Assembly (NCBI RefSeq): GCF_056712565.1
Contig: NZ_CM160072.1
DNA: 64,000 nucleotides
Direction: 5' to 3' (one strand)
The notes under the pieces: model-generated
Databases searched by the model: none
What the model was told of the DNA's origin: nothing
Seen by the model: the letters and a program-made list of their open reading frames with translations, nothing else
Part shown: positions 33,562 through 61,604 of the stretch, piece by piece
Numbering within the stretch: the first letter of the stretch is position 1
How the letters are laid out: every line of letters begins with the position of its first letter
Program-made: the position numbers and the translations under genes

Positions 33562-33665
33562 GTTAAATCTCCAGATAGTCGCAGCACCCGTTGCGCCGCA
33601 TATCTGGTTATTCTATTACCTGAAAAACCACATATGGATAAAAGGACTATAAATACCAATAGATA

Positions 33666-33680
33666 TTACCTTTCGGGTAA
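33666..33680. promoter_or_regulatory. Operator-like palindrome TTACC-N5-GGTAA
   Basis: TTACCTTTCGGGTAA; member of a family of 10 perfect sites in the prophage. Confidence 0.45.
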
Positions 33681-33717
33681 TTTGCAAAACGTGCTGGATA
33701 GCAAACAAATTATTTGT

Positions 33718-33737
33718 TACTGTATAAACATACAGTT
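33718..33737. promoter_or_regulatory. LexA (SOS) box
   Basis: TACTGTATAAACATACAGTT = CTGT-N8-ACAG with TA-rich spacer, 20 bp upstream of ATG 33757. Confidence 0.6.
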
Positions 33738-33756
33738 ATTGCATGGAGAAGATAAG

Positions 33757-34014
33757 ATGCAGCAGTATCACTATCCACTGGAAGACGGATTTACCGAAAG
33801 GATTCACACGCCGGGAGGCGTCAGATCACTGGTGGAGGGATCGCTCTTGATGAAATTACTCCGGGATCTCGATAAGGATGGATTTAATGTCGATGGCCCA
33901 CTTGCCGAACTGACTGCACTGATTAACTACGTCACCAGCTCACAGATGTCTATGCGGGATCTGCAAACACATCTCGACTATTGTGCCGAACAATTACGAA
34001 AACAAACCAGATAA
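33757..34014 (+). CDS. Small antirepressor-like protein (85 aa), paralog of the Ant C-terminal domain
   Basis: MQQYHYPLEDGF...; aligns with C-terminus of the BRO-N protein; RBS GGAGAAG; track start 33634 is an extension. Confidence 0.55.
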   Translation: MQQYHYPLEDGFTERIHTPGGVRSLVEGSLLMKLLRDLDKDGFNVDGPLAELTALINYVTSSQMSMRDLQTHLDYCAEQLRKQTR

Positions 34015-34017
34015 GGT

Positions 34018-34046
34018 TTGCAATTACCAAATGGAGTGCTTATATT
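34018..34046 (+). promoter_or_regulatory. Sigma70-like promoter for antirepressor gene
   Basis: TTGCAA, 17-bp spacer, TATATT; abuts operator 34046-34060. Confidence 0.45.
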
Positions 34047-34060: not shown

Positions 34061-34326
34061 ATTTACATCGCACTCCTCTTGTGCCATAGTAATCGGGCAC
34101 TGGCAAAATCCAGTGCCGGGATTGGCGTCCCGAGTTACTACAGAGGCACATATGCCGCATAAGCGGTTTTTTTATGTGTAAAGCGCACCTATTCTATGGT
34201 GGGCTGTGTGGGGGCACCGAAAGGTGCGCCGGGTCCTTTGTAGCCGGTTACGCCAACCCTGCACAGTTCACCACCAACCGATTGGCGTCGGTAGTGGTGA
34301 TTAACCTAACTACAAAGGTGATCGCC

Positions 34327-35019
34327 ATGAATACCAAACCTTCCATCTTTTCCTTTGAGTCATCCTGCCAGATCCGTATGTTCATGATTGACGGAGAACC
34401 TTGGTTTGTCACCAAAGATGTGTGCAATGCTTTGAATATTGATGTTACACAAGCGAGAAAACTTGATAAAAAAGGCTGGAACAAAAAGGGGCTGTATTCA
34501 ATACAGACCCCTGGTGGAATACAAGAACTATCCATCGTTTCAGAATCAGGTCTCTACATCCTTATTCTGCGTTGCAAAGAGGCAATGACTGAGGGAACGA
34601 GAGCATTCAGATTTCTTGAATGGGTTACAGGCGAAGTACTTCCTCAGATCCGCCGCACCGGAAGCTACATTAAAAACTCGCTCCCGCAGGAAGAACGCAT
34701 AAAGATGGTTGCCGACCAGGTAGCCAACGCCACGGCGTCAGCAGTAATGCAGGCGATGAAGATAGAGAACAAAACCTACAGCGCCCCACTGAAGCCCGGC
34801 TACCGCAGCCTGATTCATTCGCCGTCTGGTGTTCTCGGCCTGACGGAGAACTCACTGCTGATGAATCTGCTGAACCAGTTACAGGAAGACGGGCACGACG
34901 TATCGGGCGCGGCGGCGGAGCTGACCACCATGTTCTGCTACATCGTCGGTGTGAGCAAGTGCCTGCGTGATATCCAGACGCACGCGGAGTACATCAACGA
35001 CAAGGCTGGGTTCTTCTGA
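34327..35019 (+). CDS. Antirepressor, BRO-N N-terminal domain plus Ant-type C-terminal domain
   Basis: GEPWFVTKDVCNALNI...GLYILILRCKEA...EWVTGEVLPQIRRTG BRO-N signature; ATG 34327 with RBS AAGGTG. Confidence 0.75.
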   Translation: MNTKPSIFSFESSCQIRMFMIDGEPWFVTKDVCNALNIDVTQARKLDKKGWNKKGLYSIQTPGGIQELSIVSESGLYILILRCKEAMTEGTRAFRFLEWVTGEVLPQIRRTGSYIKNSLPQEERIKMVADQVANATASAVMQAMKIENKTYSAPLKPGYRSLIHSPSGVLGLTENSLLMNLLNQLQEDGHDVSGAAAELTTMFCYIVGVSKCLRDIQTHAEYINDKAGFF

Positions 35020-35159: not shown

Positions 35160-35792
35160 ATGAAAACAAATACAACAAGAAAAGCGATGCCATACATTAT
35201 CCCAGAAGCAGATTTCGACAGAAAACTGAACATGTCTGAGAAGAACACTAGTCACACCGAAAGCTACTTAGCGAAAGGTGTGGTTGATTTCGTTCTTCCG
35301 GGATTCACAACACCTTATGGTTATCGCCTTGTAAAATCTTGTAATGGCGATCATTACAGAATGATTACTACCAGCGATACTCCAGAAACGGTGTATGCGG
35401 TTAAGTTAATCTTTCGGGAAGATATCGTCGAAGCTAAAAGAACATGTACGCAGATCATGGTATGGCGTACGCCTAATGTTATTCATGACCGTGCTGTTCA
35501 TGGTTTGCCTCAGATTTTTTTTCAGTTCTTCCTAGAGCAATATGCGATCGTTGTATCTGATGAGCAACAAACAATCGATGGGAGAAGATTCTGGGAAAGA
35601 ATGATTTCTTGGGCTATAAACACCCCGGGATATAATGTATACGTTTCAGATGGCTCTGAAGAAGATAGACCTCTTAGCTTCATGACATCATGGGATGATT
35701 TCTATAGCCAGTGGGCTGATTTCTGTTGGGGCAGTGATAAAGATGTGCATACCCACAGACTACTGGTTATAAGCAAAGATAAACTGCATTAA
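35160..35792 (+). CDS. Hypothetical cytoplasmic protein (210 aa), moron
   Basis: Own operator, RBS GGGAGGA and terminator; Trp-rich C-terminus; no family recognised. Confidence 0.55.
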   Translation: MKTNTTRKAMPYIIPEADFDRKLNMSEKNTSHTESYLAKGVVDFVLPGFTTPYGYRLVKSCNGDHYRMITTSDTPETVYAVKLIFREDIVEAKRTCTQIMVWRTPNVIHDRAVHGLPQIFFQFFLEQYAIVVSDEQQTIDGRRFWERMISWAINTPGYNVYVSDGSEEDRPLSFMTSWDDFYSQWADFCWGSDKDVHTHRLLVISKDKLH

Positions 35793-36075: not shown

Positions 36076-36087
36076 GTGACATGTCAC
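36076..36087. repeat. Perfect 12-bp palindrome GTGACATGTCAC (copy 1 of 3)
   Basis: Exact copies at 36076, 53468, 55919. Confidence 0.5.
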
Positions 36088-39204: not shown

Positions 39205-40898
39205 ATCCCCCGGTTAATCATACAGGCGGCAAATGCCCGGAAAGCGTTGCTCATGCTATTGTCGCTGGCGTCGGCACGAATATCATTGAGTTTCTGGCGC
39301 AACGTGGTCGCAAGATCAGGGTTATCGACAGCGATATCGTCAAGCAGGGCGTTACTCAGGTTGAGCTCGTTATCAAGGTCTGCAGCGGCAGCGGTAATTT
39401 CATGATCTGCCTTTTGCGTTTCTTGATAAACCCGATCGGCTGTTTCGCTTGCTGGGCGAGCCGTTTCATCAACCTGCCGTGCCGGGTTCTGTATGCGATG
39501 GATGGCGCGTTCACGCAGTGCTGGTTTGTGCAGTTCATAGAAGGGCTCAACATCTGGGCTACGTCCTTCCATCATGTGTGCCAGCGCAGCGCGATACGCC
39601 TGCTGGTTCACGTTCCAGTCAGCATCCCTGATGGCGCTTGCGGCAGTGCGAACTGCGCCAGCGACCGGCGACATCTGCATGCCGTCCAGGATCTGCTGCG
39701 CACGCTCGGAAATGGTGACTTTCAGGTCGTCGGGGATCTCGCCGCGGGAAATCTGAGACTGGCGCCAGCGCGCCTGCTCTGCTGTCGCGTTCTGCTCCAG
39801 CGATGTGTTGATCTCCTGATTGCGTGCAGCGATGGCGTCTTTCTCGGCCTGAATCTCTTTCAGTGCCCTAGAGCGCGCATCCTTAAACTTCATCCGCTGC
39901 CCCTGATACTTTTTGGTGCGCTGCTGCAGCGTCGCATCAAGCGAGTCAGCATGACGTTGATTAGCCGCAAGCTCGGCACGCAGGTCGGCAACGTTACCGA
40001 TCTGCCCGCTCTGTAACTCCTGCTGGCGCGCCATATAGTCAGGAACCACGTCGTCATAAGCCCGGCTGTATGCGTAGCTCTCCGCTTCACTGGAAATGGC
40101 CGCCGCCAGATCTGCGTTAGCGCCAACCTCAGGGATATTCACGCCCGCCGGAATGTTGTCAGGCGTTATCACCGGGGTTGGCTGCGCATCGCCAGAAAAC
40201 GCCGGGGACTCTCCCGTTGCAGCATCGGGAACGCGACGCGGTCGCACGATATCGGCGATAAGGCCGCCGCCGGCATGCATTAGACCGCCAGCCATCGTGT
40301 TAAAGAAAGTACTTTCCAACGCGTTGCTATAGGTGAAGTCGTCACCTTCCGCCGCCGCTGCCAGCCCGGTAAGCGGCACGGTCACCAACGCCTGCGCTGC
40401 CCCCATGCGTGCACCAGCAACAAATCGCTCGCCAAATCGGCCAAGCACAGAAGCCGCCTTTGCTTCTCCAGCGAACGGAACCAGCGCCAGCGCCACGTTA
40501 CCAGGATCTGCCATTGAACCAGCTAGGCTGGCTGCGAAATTAAGCGGCGTGGCTACCCACCCGCTCGGTGCCGACATCGCGATCTGCTGGCGTGCCAGAG
40601 AATCTTTGCGTTCGGCAATAACATGATCGAGAAAAGCCTGCGTAACGCCAGAATCTGGCACGTTTATGCTCTTTACGCCGTACTGCTTCAGGAGCTCATC
40701 CGCTTCCTGCTTACTGATAACTGTAGAGTTTGGGTCATTCGCCAGCGAGTCGGCCTGCGCAAAGCGGTAGCCGGACATGACCGGCCCCTCTTCAAATCCC
40801 TGCTTAAGGGAAGAAAGCAGCGATTCGCCAAGCCCTGCTGGCGCGTTGCCAATTGGCTGGTTAATTCCCTGTCCCGGATCATCTGTGTAAATTGGCAT
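39201..40898 (-). CDS. Internal virion / ejection protein (565 aa)
   Basis: Ala/Gly-rich with coiled-coil C-terminus; coupled to flanking genes. Confidence 0.55.
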   Translation of the reverse strand: MPIYTDDPGQGINQPIGNAPAGLGESLLSSLKQGFEEGPVMSGYRFAQADSLANDPNSTVISKQEADELLKQYGVKSINVPDSGVTQAFLDHVIAERKDSLARQQIAMSAPSGWVATPLNFAASLAGSMADPGNVALALVPFAGEAKAASVLGRFGERFVAGARMGAAQALVTVPLTGLAAAAEGDDFTYSNALESTFFNTMAGGLMHAGGGLIADIVRPRRVPDAATGESPAFSGDAQPTPVITPDNIPAGVNIPEVGANADLAAAISSEAESYAYSRAYDDVVPDYMARQQELQSGQIGNVADLRAELAANQRHADSLDATLQQRTKKYQGQRMKFKDARSRALKEIQAEKDAIAARNQEINTSLEQNATAEQARWRQSQISRGEIPDDLKVTISERAQQILDGMQMSPVAGAVRTAASAIRDADWNVNQQAYRAALAHMMEGRSPDVEPFYELHKPALRERAIHRIQNPARQVDETARPASETADRVYQETQKADHEITAAAADLDNELNLSNALLDDIAVDNPDLATTLRQKLNDIRADASDNSMSNAFRAFAACMINRGM

Positions 40899-50493: not shown

Positions 50494-52169
50494 TGTGATT
50501 GCCCACCCTGACCACTAACTGCATTCGCCATAGCTGACAAAACACTCGGATCCGAAGTTTTAGCTTCACTTAGCGTCTTGGCACCCTGTGCCGCCGCCAT
50601 CCCCATCGCCATCATTTGTTGCTGCTGTTGTTGCTGTGCCCGTTGCTGGCGAGCCTGCTCAACCTGTTCCTGCGGAACAATGACGGTTGGAGACACTCCG
50701 GACATATCAGCGAATGCATCGATCGCCTGATCAACGTTGAGTTTGTCGAGAGCTTCTGGTTTCGCTTGCGCAAGTTGACCAATGAAGTTAACCGTGGACG
50801 CCAGACTGGACAGGCCGATAGACTTCTGCGCCTGAGCCATGACGGAAATGTATTCGACCTTCAGGGGCATGCCTTCCATCGCGTCAGGCGGTGGCGGCAG
50901 CATGTTTTTACGCACCATCATCGAGAAAGAGCGATCAATGAGAGGATTAAGACATTCGTCGTTCAGGCGCTCCAGAACCGGCCCCAACATCAGAAGTTTT
51001 TCTTCTTTCATTTCGATCACCGCTTCCACAGGCATCGAGCGGGTATTGATGTTCTGCAACATCATGAACAGATCGACAAAGTAGGCGCTGTTAATGATTT
51101 GACGAGTGTCCTGAATGTCTGCCACCAAATCTGCTGTACTGGGGTTAACCAGATAAGCAGGCCTGAAACCATCCTGACCAGTAATCTGATCGATATACGT
51201 GATGTCGCCAGGAAGAAGGGAGGCACGCTGATTCTTGAGGGAAGTCGGAGCAACCATCGGCGGATTGGTGGCTTTATCAATCAACTGCGACTTGCGCTTC
51301 TGGAGAAGCTGCAATGCCTTAACAGGTCCAAGCGCCAGCATACCCGGGCATGATGATCCATAAACATCTTCGCCGTTAACTTCCCAGCGCGGAGCCATAA
51401 TTGGAAACTCATCGAATCCGGACTCACGCAACAACTTGTCGTTATCGCCACCAACCTCGTAATAAACCGATTTGAATGGCTTGTTCTTGCTATCCAGCTT
51501 CGATGTATCGCGGTCAATGTTCGGGTAAACCGAATGCATCACTTCAATCCACTTCTCGTAGGTGCCGCTTTCCCACATGCTTTTTACGGATTCGCTGACG
51601 TTATTTAGCCCGAACTCCTGAACAAGCTGACGAACAGTCATAGAGAACTTGCGAAAACAGGTGTCCACACTGCCACGAGGTGAGTTAGCCAGGTAGTAAC
51701 TGCCTATCGGGAATGGCATTGTGCGAATGATGTCCTCGTCATCCTCCAGCACTGCCATTGCACCAGTGCTGTATGTGCCGAGGCTTCCGTATAACTGCGG
51801 CAGCGACTGATAGAGATTCGACTTATTGAACATATCGTTCATGCGGTTCTGCACCGCCTCAAGCCACAACTTAACAGGGCCATAATCCATCATTTCAGGA
51901 TCTGGCGTAGCCAGGCGAAACCACGGACGCGCGGGGCTTGTGATGCCTGACATCATGCCGCTGGCGAGAGTGCGCGCCGCCATAGTCCCGGTCGAATCAA
52001 TAATGCGTGTATTGCGTCGATCGTTACGGTTGACCTCAGAAGTCAGAAAGCGGGAACCACGCGGGTTGATGTAATCACTCAACTCGCGCCAGTGCGGCTC
52101 GAACGACTGACGCTCGCTTTCAAGTTGTGCGAACTGTTTGTTCAATCGCTCTTTAGTTGTTTCCGCCAT
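50490..52169 (-). CDS. Portal protein
   Basis: 559 aa, downstream of terminase with moron between; Gln/Ala-rich C-terminus. Confidence 0.7.
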   Translation of the reverse strand: MAETTKERLNKQFAQLESERQSFEPHWRELSDYINPRGSRFLTSEVNRNDRRNTRIIDSTGTMAARTLASGMMSGITSPARPWFRLATPDPEMMDYGPVKLWLEAVQNRMNDMFNKSNLYQSLPQLYGSLGTYSTGAMAVLEDDEDIIRTMPFPIGSYYLANSPRGSVDTCFRKFSMTVRQLVQEFGLNNVSESVKSMWESGTYEKWIEVMHSVYPNIDRDTSKLDSKNKPFKSVYYEVGGDNDKLLRESGFDEFPIMAPRWEVNGEDVYGSSCPGMLALGPVKALQLLQKRKSQLIDKATNPPMVAPTSLKNQRASLLPGDITYIDQITGQDGFRPAYLVNPSTADLVADIQDTRQIINSAYFVDLFMMLQNINTRSMPVEAVIEMKEEKLLMLGPVLERLNDECLNPLIDRSFSMMVRKNMLPPPPDAMEGMPLKVEYISVMAQAQKSIGLSSLASTVNFIGQLAQAKPEALDKLNVDQAIDAFADMSGVSPTVIVPQEQVEQARQQRAQQQQQQQMMAMGMAAAQGAKTLSEAKTSDPSVLSAMANAVSGQGGQSQ

Positions 52170-52183
52170 TTCAATGACTCCGG

Positions 52184-52390
52184 TTACTGACCAAGCAGCG
52201 TTTTACCGCTGGTATTAGCGGTTGATGTGTCGCCCTGAGAACCGGTAAGCAGCGTAGAACTACGACCAGCAGCAGCGCGACGGCGACGTGTTTCTTCGTC
52301 GCGGGCATCAACAACGGCGGCATCCTGCTCCTGTGGTGCTGCCTGAACTTCTGGTGTTGCAGGCACTGATGGTGAGCTACCCATGCACAT
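52184..52390 (-). CDS. Small hypothetical protein (68 aa) upstream of portal
   Basis: ATG 52390 with RBS GGAG; overlapping alternative frame 52171..52410 judged less likely. Confidence 0.3.
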   Translation of the reverse strand: MCMGSSPSVPATPEVQAAPQEQDAAVVDARDEETRRRRAAAGRSSTLLTGSQGDTSTANTSGKTLLGQ

Positions 52391-52458
52391 ATCAATGACT
52401 CCGTACGCAATTAAATTATTACCAATTTAACCACATATGATTTATTTATCGTAGAAGG

Positions 52459-52495
52459 TTGACATTTAACGCGTTAATTATTACCTTTCAGGTAA
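52459..52495. promoter_or_regulatory. TTGACA -35-like hexamer plus operator-like palindrome (52481-52495)
   Basis: TTGACA at 52459-52464; TTACCTTTCAGGTAA at 52481-52495. Confidence 0.4.
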
Positions 52496-52816
52496 CCAAG
52501 AGCTCATTCTGGTTACTAACCTGACTGGCTTGTCGTTAAATTAAACAGGTGGAGTGAGCTTTTATTTTGAGCAGTACGGCGTATGGCACATGCGCCGATA
52601 GCGGTCTGGATACGTTTAAGGGGCACCCTCCCTTGCTCGGGCAAACGAACCAGGTAGCCGGAATGTGCAAGTCGAGCGGTTTTATTCCGCGCACGGGGAT
52701 TCACCATCCCGGCGATTCGGTGTGACGCCTCGGAAGAGACGAGGGTACAACGATGAGAGCATTTATGGAGCCGCGACAAAGTGTGGCGCCTTAACAGGCT
52801 AAGTGCTCTCAGCGTT

Positions 52817-52893
52817 GTGGCATTAGCTCAGTTGGACAGAGCAACCGCCTTCTAAGCGGTTGGTCGCAGGTTCGAATCCTGCATGCCACGCCA
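52817..52893 (+). tRNA. Phage-encoded tRNA-Arg, anticodon UCU
   Basis: Cloverleaf by hand: acceptor GTGGCAT/ATGCCAC, D-arm GCTC/GAGC, anticodon stem ACCGC/GCGGT, loop CTTCTAA, T-arm GCAGG-TTCGAAT-CCTGC, CCA end. Confidence 0.85.
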
Positions 52894-53091
52894 GAATCAC
52901 GCCTAAGGACCGTGATGCCAGAAGTTCCAGGTGCTTGGCGGTGATGGTTTCCCTTGAAGGACTATCACCGCCCTTTTTACAGCAGGACGCCATTGCGATG
53001 ACTTCATGCTGTAAACCAGTACAGCCACGGAAGGCATAACTCATTGCTTCCAGTTCGCCCGGTTCGCCGGGCATTTTTTAAAGGTGAGATT

Positions 53092-53463
53092 ATGAACGAC
53101 CAGCAAATCGAAAAAGAAATCGTTGAGAAAGGCAAAACGGCACCGCGCGTTACGCCAGACCATATCGAAGGCATTATTGCTCAGGAGGCATATTTCACAG
53201 CAGAAGATGGTGCCTTTGGCAAAGCCATAAAAGCGAAACATACTGGCGGAGAGGTAAACTACCAGCCGCACGAATCACTTTCTCTGCTGACGTTCTGCGT
53301 CCTGGTGCTGCGCAACGGCTTCACCGTCACCGGAGAGAGCGCCTGTGCAAGCCCGGAAAACTTTGATGCGGAAATTGGTCGGGAGATTGCCCGGCAGAAT
53401 GCTGTAAACAAAATCTGGATGCTCGAAGGTTACTTGCTGAAGCAGAAGTTAAGCGAGCAATAA
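53092..53463 (+). CDS. Hypothetical protein (123 aa) co-oriented with tRNA; moron
   Basis: ATG 53092 with RBS AAAGGTGAG; plus-strand island in minus-strand operon; family not confidently recognised. Confidence 0.55.
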   Translation: MNDQQIEKEIVEKGKTAPRVTPDHIEGIIAQEAYFTAEDGAFGKAIKAKHTGGEVNYQPHESLSLLTFCVLVLRNGFTVTGESACASPENFDAEIGREIARQNAVNKIWMLEGYLLKQKLSEQ

Positions 53464-53467
53464 CACC

Positions 53468-53479
53468 GTGACATGTCAC
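53468..53479. repeat. Perfect 12-bp palindrome GTGACATGTCAC (copy 2 of 3)
   Basis: Immediately before the bidirectional terminator. Confidence 0.5.
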
Positions 53480-53483
53480 AAAC

Positions 53484-53510
53484 AGCCAGCCGATGAGCTG
53501 GCTTTGTTTT
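53484..53510. terminator. Rho-independent (probably bidirectional) terminator
   Basis: AGCCAGC-cgatga-GCTGGCT then TTGTTTT. Confidence 0.6.
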
Positions 53511-53553: not shown

Positions 53554-55029
53554 TTAAGCATAAGGGTCATAATCCGTTATGGCCCTTCCCTGCTGGCTTT
53601 GCTGTCCAGGTATATTTATGCGTTTCGAGACCGGGAAAGCAAACGTCAGCAGTAGCGCATCGCCTTTACCCGGCGAACGCCCAAGCCGCTCCTTGATATC
53701 TTCCTTCGGTTCGATAACGATTTTACCGTCCACACGAACTTTGTACTCTGCCGCCGACAGGTCGTCTGCAGTTTCCTGGTCATCCAGCATGCCGCCGAGC
53801 CTCAGCCATGTCTTGCATGAGTTGAACATCTCCCCACGCTTGTTGAGCATCTGCGGGTCAGTAGACGCGCCACCGAACGGAACAAGTTGCCATGTACGTC
53901 CCCAGCCATCACCGATTGACTTCAAACCGGTTCCGTAACCGAAGTCGATGAACACCGCGTCAGCCTGATACTGGTCTTCAAAGTCAGCGATACGCTTCGC
54001 CATAATCAGATCGTCGGTAGTCTTGTTGCCAGTCCACAGCACCTTACTGTGTAGCCCCTGCCGCAGGTATATCACAGCGTCATCAACGCCGGAGTATGCC
54101 GGGTCAACGCCGATTATCACCGGAGCATGTGCAACCTGCGCAGCGGTTACCACCCGTTTCATTGCCTCGTCAGTAAGACCGGTAGGGATAAACTGCAATT
54201 CAGATGCATCAGGGAATATGCCACGCACACGGATTTTAACGAAGTCGCTGTCTTCCCCGTAGTCATCAACCCATTTCTGCAACTGCTGTTTGTTGGTACC
54301 TTCCACCGTCCGACTGTCAATCTGCGCAGTTTTCCAGCGGTGTTTATACTTGCGGAAACATTCACGGAAACGTCCGGTATTACGTGTAGGGTTTCCGAAC
54401 GCCACCCAAATAATCTCAGTGTCTTCGTCCGTAAGCGCACCCTCGGCAACTTCCCACACCAGATCCGCAATGTTCGACGCTTCATCAAACACCACGATGA
54501 TGCGTTTGCGCTCGTTGTGTAGTCCGGCGAATGCCTCGGTGTTGTGCTCAGACCAGGGTATTGCGTCAGCCCGCCACCGCTTGTCGTGCCCTAGGTCATT
54601 GCTGTACATCGCGGTAGCGGTACAGGTAAACCAGTCTTTCGTGATAGCAAGGTTCGACCACTTGATAATTTCCGGCCAGGTCTTCGTTCGTAGCTGGTTG
54701 TCGGTGTTGGCGGTCACCACGACCTTACAATCCTCGCAAGTGGACATGCCCCAGTTGATCAGCATTGAGATGAATGCGGATTTACCAATACCGTGACCAG
54801 AAGCGCGTGCCAGCATAAGCGGCTGATAGCGCGTCTCTGGATTCTGCAGGTGATCACGTATCTCTCGGAACGCATCAGCCTGCCACTGACGTGGGCCGGT
54901 GGCATGTGCCAGTTCAGTCCCCTCTTCCCCCCATGGGAACGCATAGAGGGCATAGCCAAGCGGATCGTGAGTGAACCCTGCAATATCCTCGATTAACTGC
55001 TCTTCAGGAGATAACGCTGTATCTGTCAC
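53554..55029 (-). CDS. Terminase large subunit
   Basis: 491 aa; Walker A-like ASGHGIGKS; C-terminal nuclease-like region; follows small subunit with overlap. Confidence 0.85.
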   Translation of the reverse strand: MTDTALSPEEQLIEDIAGFTHDPLGYALYAFPWGEEGTELAHATGPRQWQADAFREIRDHLQNPETRYQPLMLARASGHGIGKSAFISMLINWGMSTCEDCKVVVTANTDNQLRTKTWPEIIKWSNLAITKDWFTCTATAMYSNDLGHDKRWRADAIPWSEHNTEAFAGLHNERKRIIVVFDEASNIADLVWEVAEGALTDEDTEIIWVAFGNPTRNTGRFRECFRKYKHRWKTAQIDSRTVEGTNKQQLQKWVDDYGEDSDFVKIRVRGIFPDASELQFIPTGLTDEAMKRVVTAAQVAHAPVIIGVDPAYSGVDDAVIYLRQGLHSKVLWTGNKTTDDLIMAKRIADFEDQYQADAVFIDFGYGTGLKSIGDGWGRTWQLVPFGGASTDPQMLNKRGEMFNSCKTWLRLGGMLDDQETADDLSAAEYKVRVDGKIVIEPKEDIKERLGRSPGKGDALLLTFAFPVSKRINIPGQQSQQGRAITDYDPYA

Positions 55030-55622
55030 TGATTGCCATCCTGACGTTCTTTCAGTCTCTTCCTGGCTGCCGCTATGCGATCAGCAATTGTCACATTCAC
55101 ATTAACATCCAGGCGTTCTTTGAATGCGTTGACGTCGACGTGCTTACCAATCAGTTCGAGGTTCTTCACCTTGTCAGGCCATTTAATTTTTTTGAGGATT
55201 GTCTCTATCGAATCCTCGTTCATGTTCATGATGGTCGATGACAGATCAAAGCCACTAAGCGTAGTGCGCCAGATTTTCGGCCACTCGCGGATTGGCTTAA
55301 GGCTCCCATCGTCGTTGAGGATGTCGATCACGTCCATCTGGTCGATCTCCACCAGGCGCATGAGAACGTAATCAGCACTGACGCGCATTCGTTTGTTGCG
55401 CTCCTCCATCAACTCGGCAATCCGTTTTTGAATGCGTTCATCGCGCATCATGACACTGGCTTTAACTGCCGCTGTATTTGGGGAGAATCCTGCGTTAATC
55501 GCTGCCTGAGTCTGGTTTTCAGGCGTTTTGATGTATGACTGGCAATAAGCCTCCTGCATTGCTGTTAGTGGCTTAAATTGCGTTGATTTGCGTTTATAGG
55601 TTTTAGGTTCAGCAGGCATCAT
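55026..55622 (-). CDS. Terminase small subunit
   Basis: ATG 55622/55619 preferred; track start 55700 is a TTG extension over a terminator and operator. Confidence 0.55.
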   Translation of the reverse strand: MMPAEPKTYKRKSTQFKPLTAMQEAYCQSYIKTPENQTQAAINAGFSPNTAAVKASVMMRDERIQKRIAELMEERNKRMRVSADYVLMRLVEIDQMDVIDILNDDGSLKPIREWPKIWRTTLSGFDLSSTIMNMNEDSIETILKKIKWPDKVKNLELIGKHVDVNAFKERLDVNVNVTIADRIAAARKRLKERQDGNQ

Positions 55623-55639
55623 AACCACCGTGGTAATAG

Positions 55640-55654
55640 TTACCGTTGTGGTAA
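55640..55654. promoter_or_regulatory. Operator-like palindrome TTACC-N5-GGTAA upstream of packaging operon
   Basis: TTACCGTTGTGGTAA, 18 bp upstream of small-terminase ATG. Confidence 0.45.
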
Positions 55655-55663
55655 TAGTACCAT

Positions 55664-55691
55664 GCAAAATAAAGCCGCCATAGTTGGCGGC
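55664..55691 (-). terminator. Terminator separating early/middle operon from packaging operon
   Basis: Minus strand GCCGCCA-acta-TGGCGGC then TTTATTTTG. Confidence 0.5.
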
Positions 55692-55696
55692 AGTAT

Positions 55697-55909
55697 TCAA
55701 AGTCCATCAAATTCATCGTAAAAACTCTCGTCAAGATACCCTTCCCATTTACCGCGAATGAAAATTACATCCTCGCCGCAAGGGTGCTGACTGTCGATAA
55801 CTATATCCCTCCTGGCGCAACCATACTTATGCATGAGAAATTTAACCTCTTTCGGAAAATTTGCTGAGTTATCTCTCATATCTTCAAGGTCGTAGCGTAT
55901 TTTTGGCAT
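55697..55909 (-). CDS. Hypothetical protein (70 aa)
   Basis: ATG 55909 with RBS AAGGTG; track start 55930 is a GTG inside the palindrome. Confidence 0.35.
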   Translation of the reverse strand: MPKIRYDLEDMRDNSANFPKEVKFLMHKYGCARRDIVIDSQHPCGEDVIFIRGKWEGYLDESFYDEFDGL

Positions 55910-55918
55910 AACACCTTC

Positions 55919-55930
55919 GTGACATGTCAC
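55919..55930. repeat. Perfect 12-bp palindrome GTGACATGTCAC (copy 3 of 3)
   Basis: Overlaps stop codon of gene 55927..56265. Confidence 0.5.
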
Positions 55931-56265
55931 ACTATTAATTTCGTTTCATGCCAGCCTTTGGTCACCCAGCATTGCGAGTCACCATTACACGGGCATGAAT
56001 TAACTGGAACTCTCTCGCCGCACTTACCGCAACGTTTTCTGCTGATCGATTTTATACGCCCGCGCACGCGTGCATCATCCTGGCGGATCAGTAACGCTAT
56101 ATACTCACCAAATTCGTAAGGCGCACGCCCGGGGCGACGCGTGGCACAGTTACGCTCCAGCATTTCAATTTCCTGAGCATCAAGCACAATCTCCAGTTTA
56201 CGCACACCAGATGCAGCTTGTCTGGCTCTCTGAGCGGCTTTGCGCTCTGCTGCTGATTTAGCCAT
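55927..56265 (-). CDS. Hypothetical basic protein with Cys cluster (112 aa)
   Basis: ATG 56265 with RBS AAGGTG; CGKCGERVPVNSCPC motif. Confidence 0.4.
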   Translation of the reverse strand: MAKSAAERKAAQRARQAASGVRKLEIVLDAQEIEMLERNCATRRPGRAPYEFGEYIALLIRQDDARVRGRIKSISRKRCGKCGERVPVNSCPCNGDSQCWVTKGWHETKLIV

Positions 56266-58208: not shown

Positions 58209-58553
58209 TCAGAACTCTTCGATGTTCCAGCCGCAACCTGCTTTCTTTGGTTTAACCGTTACCCCGATGATTCGGAACGGATACTGATCTGCGGCGACTT
58301 TGGTTTTCACCCTGGCGTCGTCGGTCCAGAAACCTTTCACTTCGTGCAGTTCCATCTCTCCGGTGGCGAGCATCACAGCGAAATCTGGCGTATAGAACGT
58401 GTTGTCAGCTAACCGCAGCTTGATACCCTCGAATCGATACCAGGCGATTTCCCCTGCACGTTTACGCAGCTCAAGGTGCTGGCAATACGCAGATTCTGTT
58501 TTGTTCATCTGGCCTGTTTTGAGTCGACCAAGAGCCTGTATCTGTTTTCTCAT
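58209..58553 (-). CDS. Small PD-(D/E)XK-like nuclease-fold protein
   Basis: YTPDF...HEVKGF motif. Confidence 0.45.
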   Translation of the reverse strand: MRKQIQALGRLKTGQMNKTESAYCQHLELRKRAGEIAWYRFEGIKLRLADNTFYTPDFAVMLATGEMELHEVKGFWTDDARVKTKVAADQYPFRIIGVTVKPKKAGCGWNIEEF

Positions 58554-58556
58554 GAT

Positions 58557-58571
58557 TTACCTCTAAGGTAA
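58557..58571. promoter_or_regulatory. Operator-like palindrome TTACC-N5-GGTAA
   Basis: TTACCTCTAAGGTAA immediately upstream of ATG 58553. Confidence 0.45.
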
Positions 58572-58618
58572 TTAAAAACCACATAAGACACGAAATCAAT
58601 AGATCTAAGAACATTTTG

Positions 58619-58633
58619 TTACCTATTGGGTAA
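58619..58633. promoter_or_regulatory. Operator-like palindrome TTACC-N5-GGTAA
   Basis: TTACCTATTGGGTAA in P / nuclease-like spacer. Confidence 0.45.
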
Positions 58634-58670
58634 CTATTGAGGCGTAAAAAAATGCGCTATCGCGCTGGTA

Positions 58671-60901: not shown

Positions 60902-60964
60902 TCACCCATAAGGTAACAAAAATCAAGGATAGTTACCTATGAGGTGCATTTACCTGTTGGGTAA
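60902..60964. promoter_or_regulatory. OR-like tripartite operator region between cro-like and cI-like genes
   Basis: TCACCCATAAGGTAA (60902), TTACCTATGAGGTGC (60933), TTACCTGTTGGGTAA (60950). Confidence 0.5.
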
Positions 60965-61019: not shown

Positions 61020-61604
61020 ATGAAAAGTATCCAGGACGTCCGCAGGCAAAATCTCAACGACTTGATCGACCGTGAATTCAATGGTGTTCAGACGCGGATG
61101 GCAGAAAAACTTGGAACTCAGGCAAATCTGGTAAACCGCTGGGCTCTTGGCAAGAAGGTTATCGGCGACCAGGTTGCGCGAAAAATTGAAGCTGCCGCCA
61201 ATAAACCCCGTAACTGGCTTGATATCGATCGCTCGCTTTCTCAGGAAGGTTTTCAGCCTGTCGGCCCAAGCGACATTGGTCAGCTGGCGGCTCACAACCT
61301 GGAACGCTGGATGAGCGAAAGCCGCGACCTTTCAACACAGGGAAAACTTCACCGCGCATCCGGCGTCGCCCAGGTGACAATCAGCCGCCTGTTAAACAAT
61401 GAGGTCAGCGTTTCCATTTCCACCCTGGAGAATGTTGCATCCGCATTCGGGCGTCACGGCTATGAATTACTGATTCACCCGCACGACCCTGCGACTATCA
61501 ACTATGACCGCTCGCGCTACGCATTGTTACCCGAAACAGAGAAGGCAAAGATCGAAAGTTACATTGAATTTGTCATCAGCCAGAACGAAAAAAACAAACA
61601 ATAA
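61020..61604 (+). CDS. CI-like repressor, HTH type, no recognisable LexA-type autocleavage domain
   Basis: 194 aa, two HTH-like segments, no Ala-Gly/Ser-Lys S24 motifs; followed by terminator. Confidence 0.65.
   Translation: MKSIQDVRRQNLNDLIDREFNGVQTRMAEKLGTQANLVNRWALGKKVIGDQVARKIEAAANKPRNWLDIDRSLSQEGFQPVGPSDIGQLAAHNLERWMSESRDLSTQGKLHRASGVAQVTISRLLNNEVSVSISTLENVASAFGRHGYELLIHPHDPATINYDRSRYALLPETEKAKIESYIEFVISQNEKNKQ

Follow-up and report, generated by a model that had tools for sequence, protein, structure and literature searches.

The closest described relative of the locus studied here is the corresponding region of Salmonella phage epsilon15. According to its record (NC_004775), this orthologous locus contains a rho-independent terminator (39646-39672), a protein_bind feature named 'repressor' (12-27) and the gene of the small terminase, terS (47-643). 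The 'repressor' features of the record appear to be in-silico predictions. A second relevant system is the Rep/Ant immunity system of Salmonella phage SPC32H, which is reportedly the subject of Kim & Ryu 2013 and Kim et al. 2016 and of the PDB entries 5D50/5D4Z. Both the epsilon15 terminator with its 'repressor' site before terS and the SPC32H Rep/Ant system are already known.

Two more distant systems also serve for comparison. In phage lambda, late control involves the Q protein, the promoter pR', the qut site and the terminator tR', upstream of the lysis and Nu1/A genes. In mycobacteriophage L5 and other cluster A phages, stoperators are asymmetric, orientation-dependent sites that act on elongation inside operons.

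The window (the whole stretch of 64,000 nucleotides that was analysed) contains a prophage. It shares 98-100% DNA identity with E. coli prophages and with the phages phiV10, TL-2011b, typing phages 9/10 and ZX5, and 78-86% with the Salmonella phages epsilon15, SPN1S and SPC32H, the Enterobacter phage Tyrion and Klebsiella prophages. Due to these identities, we assign the prophage to the genus Uetakevirus (epsilon15/phiV10-like). The region is present in about 500 of 5426 complete E. coli genomes. The order on the minus strand is a gp49-like ORF of 112 aa (55927-56265), an ORF of 70 aa, a gap, terS and the large terminase gene terL, Table 1. On the 3' side of terL there is another hairpin (about 53484-53503), and then an opposite-strand unit with a tRNA-Arg and a gp50-like ORF. 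With a terminator upstream of terS, and this hairpin and opposite-strand unit after terL, the packaging genes are punctuated as a unit of their own, as the original prediction had proposed.

The gap has the same order and spacing as in epsilon15, where the hairpin GCCGCCGACTATGGCGGC and a T-tract are followed by TGtTACTAT, the operator ATTACCAAAACGGTAAT, a second site with one mismatch and the terS start. The layout is largely ordinary because it is already annotated in this reference phage; the succession of terminator, operator and small terminase that had been proposed for the window is exactly what the epsilon15 curators annotated. The window differs from epsilon15 in that a further ORF, of 70 aa, separates the gp49-like gene from the terminator. 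This ORF is an insertion relative to most relatives, and in alignment A1 it is missing from TL-2011b and typing phage 9. Neither the second operator nor a promoter is annotated in the epsilon15 record. What we add is modest: this second operator, a conserved extended -10 element in the register of the PL and PR promoters, the size of the operator set and a correction of the terS start codon.

Conservation was followed in an alignment of nine relatives (A2). A search of viral contigs for related loci, based on terS, gave 80 loci that were all 100% identical, and they therefore added no diversity. A scan of genome contigs with a 16-base pattern returned mostly chance matches, and the only relevant loci (L103 and L111) come from two further species, which brings the number of lineages to 11. 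An Rfam search of the gap region gave no match.

Table 1. Positions of the features discussed in the text, in window coordinates.
Feature	Position	Strand	Basis and remarks
Large terminase, terL	53554..55029	-	ORF list; annotation of relatives; overlaps the terS stop codon
Small terminase, terS, 197 aa	55026..55619	-	Pfam Terminase_2 (1e-29); PHROG_51; start-codon comparison
Operator O2, ATTACC-ACGGT-GGTTAT	55621..55637		Predicted site; one core mismatch; 18 bp from O1
Shine-Dalgarno GGTGG	55625..55629	-	5 nt before ATG 55619; GGTG invariant in A2
Operator O1, 17-bp palindrome ATTACC-ACAAC-GGTAAC	55639..55655		Predicted site; exact TTACC-N5-GGTAA; core 55640-55654
Candidate extended -10, TGgTACTAT	55654..55662	-	TG 55662-55661; hexamer TACTAT 55659-55654; no -35
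Rho-independent terminator	55664..55691	-	Stem 55691-55674 GCCGCCA/UGGCGGC; loop ACUA; U-tract 55673-55664
70-aa accessory ORF	55697..55909	-	ORF list; phrog_1541, unknown function (PHROG match 2.9e-39); 213-nt CDS in PGAP
12-bp perfect palindrome GTGACATGTCAC	55919..55930		Spans the gp49-like stop codon; one of three copies
Prophage repressor Rep	61020..61604	+	PDB 5D50 'Repressor' (E=4.1e-42, residues 1-190, full length); HTH_3

According to the terminator scan, the minus strand of the terminator reads GCCGCCAACTATGGCGGC and then TTTATTTTGC. The hairpin begins 5 nt past the TGA stop codon (55699-55697) of the 70-aa ORF, which is the last gene ahead of it. Six of the seven stem pairs are GC, the loop has 4 nt, and the tail is TTTATTTTG. 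For the 51-nt RNA the folding energy is -17.3 kcal/mol (z = -3.76), which 0 of 200 shuffled sequences matched. The terminator is kept in seven of the nine aligned relatives and in the two further species, i.e. in relatives from E. coli, Salmonella, Enterobacter (Tyrion), Klebsiella (ST512), Superficieibacter and Pseudescherichia, and its orthologue in epsilon15 is the hairpin annotated there as a rho-independent terminator. Wherever it is present the stem is identical, apart from a single change of A-U to G-U at the pair that closes the loop; there are no compensatory changes. The two relatives in which it is missing (BUCT554 and Kp4865-1) have non-homologous upstream DNA. Scan, fold statistics and conservation thus agree on the minus-strand terminator proposed at 55664-55691.

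The palindrome that follows the terminator has the core TTACCgttgtGGTAA, read as TTACCGTTGTGGTAA on the minus strand. In the window there are 10 exact TTACC-N5-GGTAA sites, compared with 0.00 expected, and 16 sites when one mismatch is allowed, compared with 1.12 expected. All exact copies fall within 33.6-61.8 kb, inside the prophage, and four of the one-mismatch copies are found in the same span. The operator palindrome of the original prediction is therefore real and far from chance. None of the ten half-site bases of O1 changes among the nine relatives, but the 5-nt spacer has six forms, as is characteristic of sites bound by a dimeric protein. The site is also conserved in the two further species, and its orthologue in epsilon15 is the 'repressor' feature at 12-27.

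An 11-nt direct repeat, GTGGTAATAGT, was detected by the repeat finder in two copies 18 bp apart, which corresponds to two tandem palindromic sites. The second of these, O2, has the core TTACCACGGTGGTTA (55636-55622), covers the Shine-Dalgarno sequence and abuts the start codon. Its counterpart in epsilon15 is the one-mismatch site at position 30, and it is degenerate or lost in the Klebsiella relatives. O2 is a weaker operator than O1, and its right half could be conserved by the overlap with the Shine-Dalgarno sequence alone.

The prophage encodes a full-length homolog of the SPC32H repressor as well as antirepressor-like genes, and SPC32H has the motif at the same positions as the prophage, including the one before terS. 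Copies of the operator at 60902, 60950, 61662 and 61724 flank rep on both sides. Two sites lie downstream of rep, at a TTGACA-N17-AATCAT promoter that would serve as PL, and two or three lie upstream of it in the divergent region. Further sites are located at a RuvC-like gene, at terS, at two antirepressor-like genes, in the gap between terL and the portal gene, and in a divergent gap between tailspike and ant-like genes. In epsilon15 and SPC32H the same motif occurs at syntenic places, and rep has three copies on either side. The motif tracks the immunity system and not terS: no such operator stands upstream of the 60% identical terS of the lambdoid, Q-dependent Cronobacter phage phiES15. According to one paper (PMC9638917), Rep binds palindromic sites as a tetramer. 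The palindrome before terS is very probably an operator of the SPC32H/epsilon15 type of Rep site, a 17-bp palindrome of the pattern A-TTACC-N5-GGTAA-T. The release of a repressor at this palindrome, one of two mechanisms put forward in the original prediction, is the best supported.

The distribution of the sites recalls L5, where one repressor also has a dozen or more sites over early and late regions. Unlike stoperators, the sites in the window are palindromic and intergenic, nearly all of them lying between ORFs, upstream of or abutting gene starts, and several stand in a fixed register over -10/+1.

A consensus scan of the minus strand between 54500 and 57000 found no -35/-10 pair, including upstream of the terminator. 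The earlier statement that the gap holds no good sigma70 -35/-10 is literally true. It is incomplete because an extended -10 element, TGGTACTAT (55662-55654), sits directly on the operator. The 9-mer pattern TGNTANTAT has one copy on the two strands of the 64-kb window, compared with about five expected by chance. All 11 lineages share the bases T, G, T, A, T, A and T of TGnTAnTAT without any change, and the element is kept in Enterobacter phage BUCT554 and Klebsiella phage Kp4865-1 despite their unrelated upstream DNA.

Extended -10 promoters (TGnTATAAT) are a class of E. coli sigma70 promoters in which the TG normally removes the need for a -35 element or an activator. The element in the window is like this class in having a TG at -15/-14, one base 5' of the hexamer, with T-12, A-11 and T-7, and no recognisable -35. 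It is unlike the class in that the hexamer matches the -10 consensus at only four of six positions (five of six in the Klebsiella form, TGgTATTAT), and its promoter activity is predicted from the sequence. The element overlaps O1 by one base of the core half-site, or two of the 17-bp site, and the hexamer ends on the T with which the TTACC half-site begins. PL of the window (TTGACA-N17-AATCAT) has this register too, as do PL of epsilon15 and SPC32H (TTGACA-N17-GATTAT), the PR-like promoters of these two phages and the ant-like genes of the window. The last three bases of the hexamer overlap the operator and its flank, and part of their conservation could be driven by the operator. The invariance of the TG and TA is not explicable by this overlap. 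It is thus probable that a weak promoter overlaps the repressor site upstream of terS. In the accessible literature we found no transcript mapping or binding at the terS site in any member of the group, and the ZX5 and phiV10 papers say nothing on the region upstream of terS.

The explanation that we prefer, and hold to be slightly better than an even bet, is that terS and terL form a transcription unit of their own, which the terminator shields from upstream transcription and which is expressed from a repressor-gated promoter without a -35. The terminator at 55691-55664 would stop transcripts arriving from the early-right operon and the 70-aa ORF. A sigma70 promoter with the extended -10 TGgTACTAT would lie right after it and start near A55647, giving a leader of 28 nt. 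With this start, the terminator would span -44 to -17, O1 about -8 to +9 and O2 about +11 to +27, so that terminator and promoter would be packed back to back. In the lysogen, an SPC32H-type Rep on O1/O2 would keep the terminase genes off; when the phage antirepressor removes Rep, the promoter would fire, and translation of TerS would begin at ATG 55619. The binding of Rep at O1/O2, the activity of the promoter and its start site are what we infer here from motifs, register and conservation. A further point counts against the model: in a temperate phage one would not usually expect the packaging genes to be de-repressed alongside the early genes without a late switch, and an additional activator or antiterminator may take part.

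The absence of a canonical -35/-10 pair could also mean that there is no promoter in the gap, and that terS-terL simply continues the PR transcript by antitermination or leakage, with Rep acting only as a roadblock or insulator. We consider this rather unlikely. It gains from those Klebsiella and Enterobacter relatives in which no terminator separates terS from a LexA-controlled gene upstream, so that read-through into terS is possible there. It gains as well from the recurrence of the module of terminator, operator(s) and ATG before the RuvC-like gene (58650-58553) in the early-right operon, where the sites could be roadblocks. However, it leaves the invariant TG and TA, outside the operator consensus, without an explanation, and the operator stands in the exact register of PL and PR. 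A roadblock would also be largely redundant, as PR itself is repressed in the lysogen. Finally, searches with Pfam, PHROG and NCBIfam identified no Q- or N-like protein among the early-right ORFs. The terminator between regulatory and packaging genes is a likeness to lambda late control. Unlike in lambda, the searches of the early-right ORFs recognised no Q-like protein and the minus-strand scan gave no promoter upstream of the terminator; in the window the repressor operators are at the packaging genes, and the lysis genes lie elsewhere.

Promoters that depend on an activator typically lack a -35, and the original prediction had named an activator as the other possible source of late expression. 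A phage activator, for instance the 112-aa gp49-like protein, would then switch on terS, and the Rep sites would be only a lysogenic lock. The gp49-like gene is conserved, belongs to a PHROG described as 'transcriptional regulator' and has invariant Cys/His residues, and the conserved 12-bp palindrome over its stop codon is the nearest candidate activator site. Nevertheless, we judge such an activator to be distinctly improbable. The conserved extended -10 in the PL/PR register counts against any need for an activator in place of a sigma70 promoter, as the TG of such elements normally dispenses with both -35 and activator. The palindrome and the promoter are about 55 bp apart in epsilon15, about 260 bp apart in the window and over 400 bp apart in the Klebsiella relatives; among different relatives the palindrome is displaced by about 190 to more than 400 bp. 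The other two copies of GTGACATGTCAC are at the 3' ends of units, beside terminators, and not before gene starts, and the palindrome probably lies outside the terS promoter. Its spacing does not seem to fit the sites of CRP, LexA or the other host factors considered.

The gp49-like protein gave no match in Pfam or NCBIfam, nor by sequence in PDB, and its 726 homologs are all named 'hypothetical'. The AlphaFold model is poor (pLDDT 66), and Foldseek found no fold neighbours for it, with nothing better than E=2.7. Only as an impression from the sequence, the protein might combine a ribbon-helix-helix with a zinc-ribbon.

Under the preferred reading, a repressor-gated promoter between the terminator and terS, the gap would be regulatory DNA. 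The ORF list and several annotations include it in terS. The frame is open from TTG 55700, the identical locus of E. coli ST95-32 has a PGAP CDS of 675 nt, and a similar long form is found in the SPN1S and PAT1 records. If the 27 extra codons were real, both operators and the terminator would lie in translated sequence and be coincidental features of coding DNA. This we find very hard to accept. There are two adjacent ATGs, at 55622 and 55619, and it is the second (ATGCC...) that is conserved, together with GGTGG, in every relative; the extension to TTG 55700 is not. Upstream of the conserved ATG, in-frame stops are found at 10 codons in three Klebsiella phages and at 14 codons in BUCT554. In epsilon15 and Tyrion there is no start codon where the long extension begins, the only candidates being a GTG in the Shine-Dalgarno sequence and a TTG in the T-tract. 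The variation in the extension sits mostly in the operator spacer and not in third codon positions. The Shine-Dalgarno sequence stands 5 nt before ATG 55619, the Pfam domain starts at residue 18 of the short TerS, and five curated records (TL-2011b, typing phage 9, epsilon15, SPC32H and Tyrion) use the equivalent of ATG 55619. Because ATG 55619 is the conserved start, the TTG-extended ORF of RefSeq/PGAP is probably wrong, and RefSeq/PGAP and some phage records appear to start terS 27 (or 25) codons too early. The original prediction had already argued against the extended ORF, and the conserved ATG and the in-frame stops of the relatives bear out this argument.

That the tandem repeats are instead a pac or small-terminase recognition site is hardly credible: they do lie at the 5' edge of terS, and the phiV10, epsilon15, SPN1S and Tyrion records open within a few tens of bases of them, but this most likely reflects the convention of opening a record at terS, the 15-bp motif occurs 10 times across the prophage and is concentrated near the repressor gene where a pac site is expected to be unique, and the terminases are of the Sf6/P22 headful type according to the notes of the epsilon15 record.

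If terS-terL is indeed a repressor-gated unit, the prophage repressor probably controls late functions directly in this group of phages, and not via a lambda-style cascade; this control has been annotated in silico, and we found no test of it. More speculatively, and as a possibility that we hold only tentatively, Uetakeviruses may use a single-tier circuit in which one family of Rep tetramers gates many units via 13-15 operators, with no late activator or antiterminator. The gated units may include PL, PR, the antirepressors, the RuvC block and the packaging genes, possibly also the tailspike and lysis units. The operators may stand in a fixed register over -10/+1 at several promoters, with terminators insulating the units, and the three copies of GTGACATGTCAC may mark unit boundaries for some factor, possibly the gp49-like Cys/His protein.

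For the engineering of phiV10, SPN1S and epsilon15 as reporter or therapeutic phages, the gap offers a concrete candidate promoter-operator as a switch point for the expression of packaging genes. A search of the DNA upstream of the portal operon (52140-52560) found no design of the terS type with an extended -10 and an operator. The operator in the gap between terL and the portal gene better fits an opposite-strand TTGACA promoter for the tRNA-Arg.

The interval between the gene of the gp49-like protein and terS, the small terminase gene, serves as a cargo site with variable content. Epsilon15 and TL-2011b carry nothing there; the window, like about 100 E. coli genomes, has a 70-aa ORF (phrog_1541) in this position. 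The Klebsiella and Enterobacter relatives carry a different small gene here, UmuD-like according to the annotation of one record, and it is preceded by a promoter, TTGACT-N17-TACTGT, with a LexA box (TACTGTTTAAATATACAGT). Where the small cargo gene abuts terS, i.e. in Kp4865-1, ST11-OXA245phi3.2 and BUCT554, terS has no preceding terminator.

The small terminase start annotated by RefSeq/PGAP, a TTG at 55700, places the terminator and both operators inside the coding sequence. The SPN1S and PAT1 records also begin too early, by 25 codons, and such early starts probably represent a systematic mistake in calling the start site of this family.

A perfect 12-bp palindrome, GTGACATGTCAC, has three exact copies in the window, against an expectation of 0.19 even when one mismatch is tolerated. 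The palindrome recurs at the three syntenic places in epsilon15 (2142, 19517, 39612) and in SPC32H (2145, 19634, 38629), and all copies lie at 3' ends of late-sense units. A rho-independent terminator adjoins each copy in these two phages; in the window the insertion with the 70-aa ORF stands between the copy at 55919 and the terS terminator. One of the copies overlaps the gp49-like gene at its stop codon, and the same overlap is seen in the relatives from Klebsiella, Enterobacter and Pseudescherichia.

The gp49-like protein has more than 700 homologs, none of them named, and its residues C40, C79, C82, C91, C93 and H106 are invariant. Searches of Pfam, NCBIfam and PDB gave no match for this protein, and no fold neighbours were found for its AlphaFold model (pLDDT 66). 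In epsilon15 (L012 1-45, minus), CTGGCA-N16-AATAAT precedes O1, the first of the two tandem operators before terS, on the strand opposite terS. These motifs could form an antisense promoter directed back toward gp49; their counterpart in the window is weaker, CAGGCA / AATAGT.

No terS-type late-sense promoter was seen upstream of the portal operon. Between this operon and the large terminase gene, terL, the tRNA-Arg(TCT) gene and the gp50-like ORF run against late-gene transcription. On the plus strand a perfect TTGACA lies 17 nt upstream of the operator at 52481, an arrangement of motifs that suggests a promoter controlled by Rep, the prophage repressor, for the antisense tRNA-Arg/gp50-like unit.

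Punctuation like that at terS occurs again within the early-right operon (58553-58660, minus), in the order terminator-like hairpin (GCGCGATAGCGC and a T-run), operator 58619, operator 58557; the last directly abuts the ATG of a RuvC-like gene (58553). Opposite the tailspike, one predicted Rep operator (33666, 34046, 35086) lies ahead of each antirepressor-like or phrog_1349 gene, and those at 34046 and 35086 overlap the -10-like hexamers TATATT and TAATAT, with the register also found at terS.

Coordinates of the features in the window and, where marked L, in related loci.
Feature	Position	Strand	Remark
Palindrome GTGACATGTCAC	36076-36087, 53468-53479, 55919-55930		12 bp, perfect
Antirepressor-like genes (two) and phrog_1349 gene (one)	33634-34014, 34174-35019, 35160-35792	plus	opposite tailspike
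Operator	52481-52495		
tRNA-Arg(TCT) gene	52817-52893	plus	between terL and portal operon
gp50-like ORF	53044-53463		between terL and portal operon
Small terminase CDS, RefSeq/PGAP	55026-55700; L013 1761-2435	minus	from TTG at 55700, 675 nt
Cargo slot	55697-55909; L095 232-700, L096 232-700, L007 560-900	minus	
gp49-like protein	55927-56265	minus	conserved, 112 aa, epsilon15 gp49 ortholog; PHROG 'transcriptional regulator'
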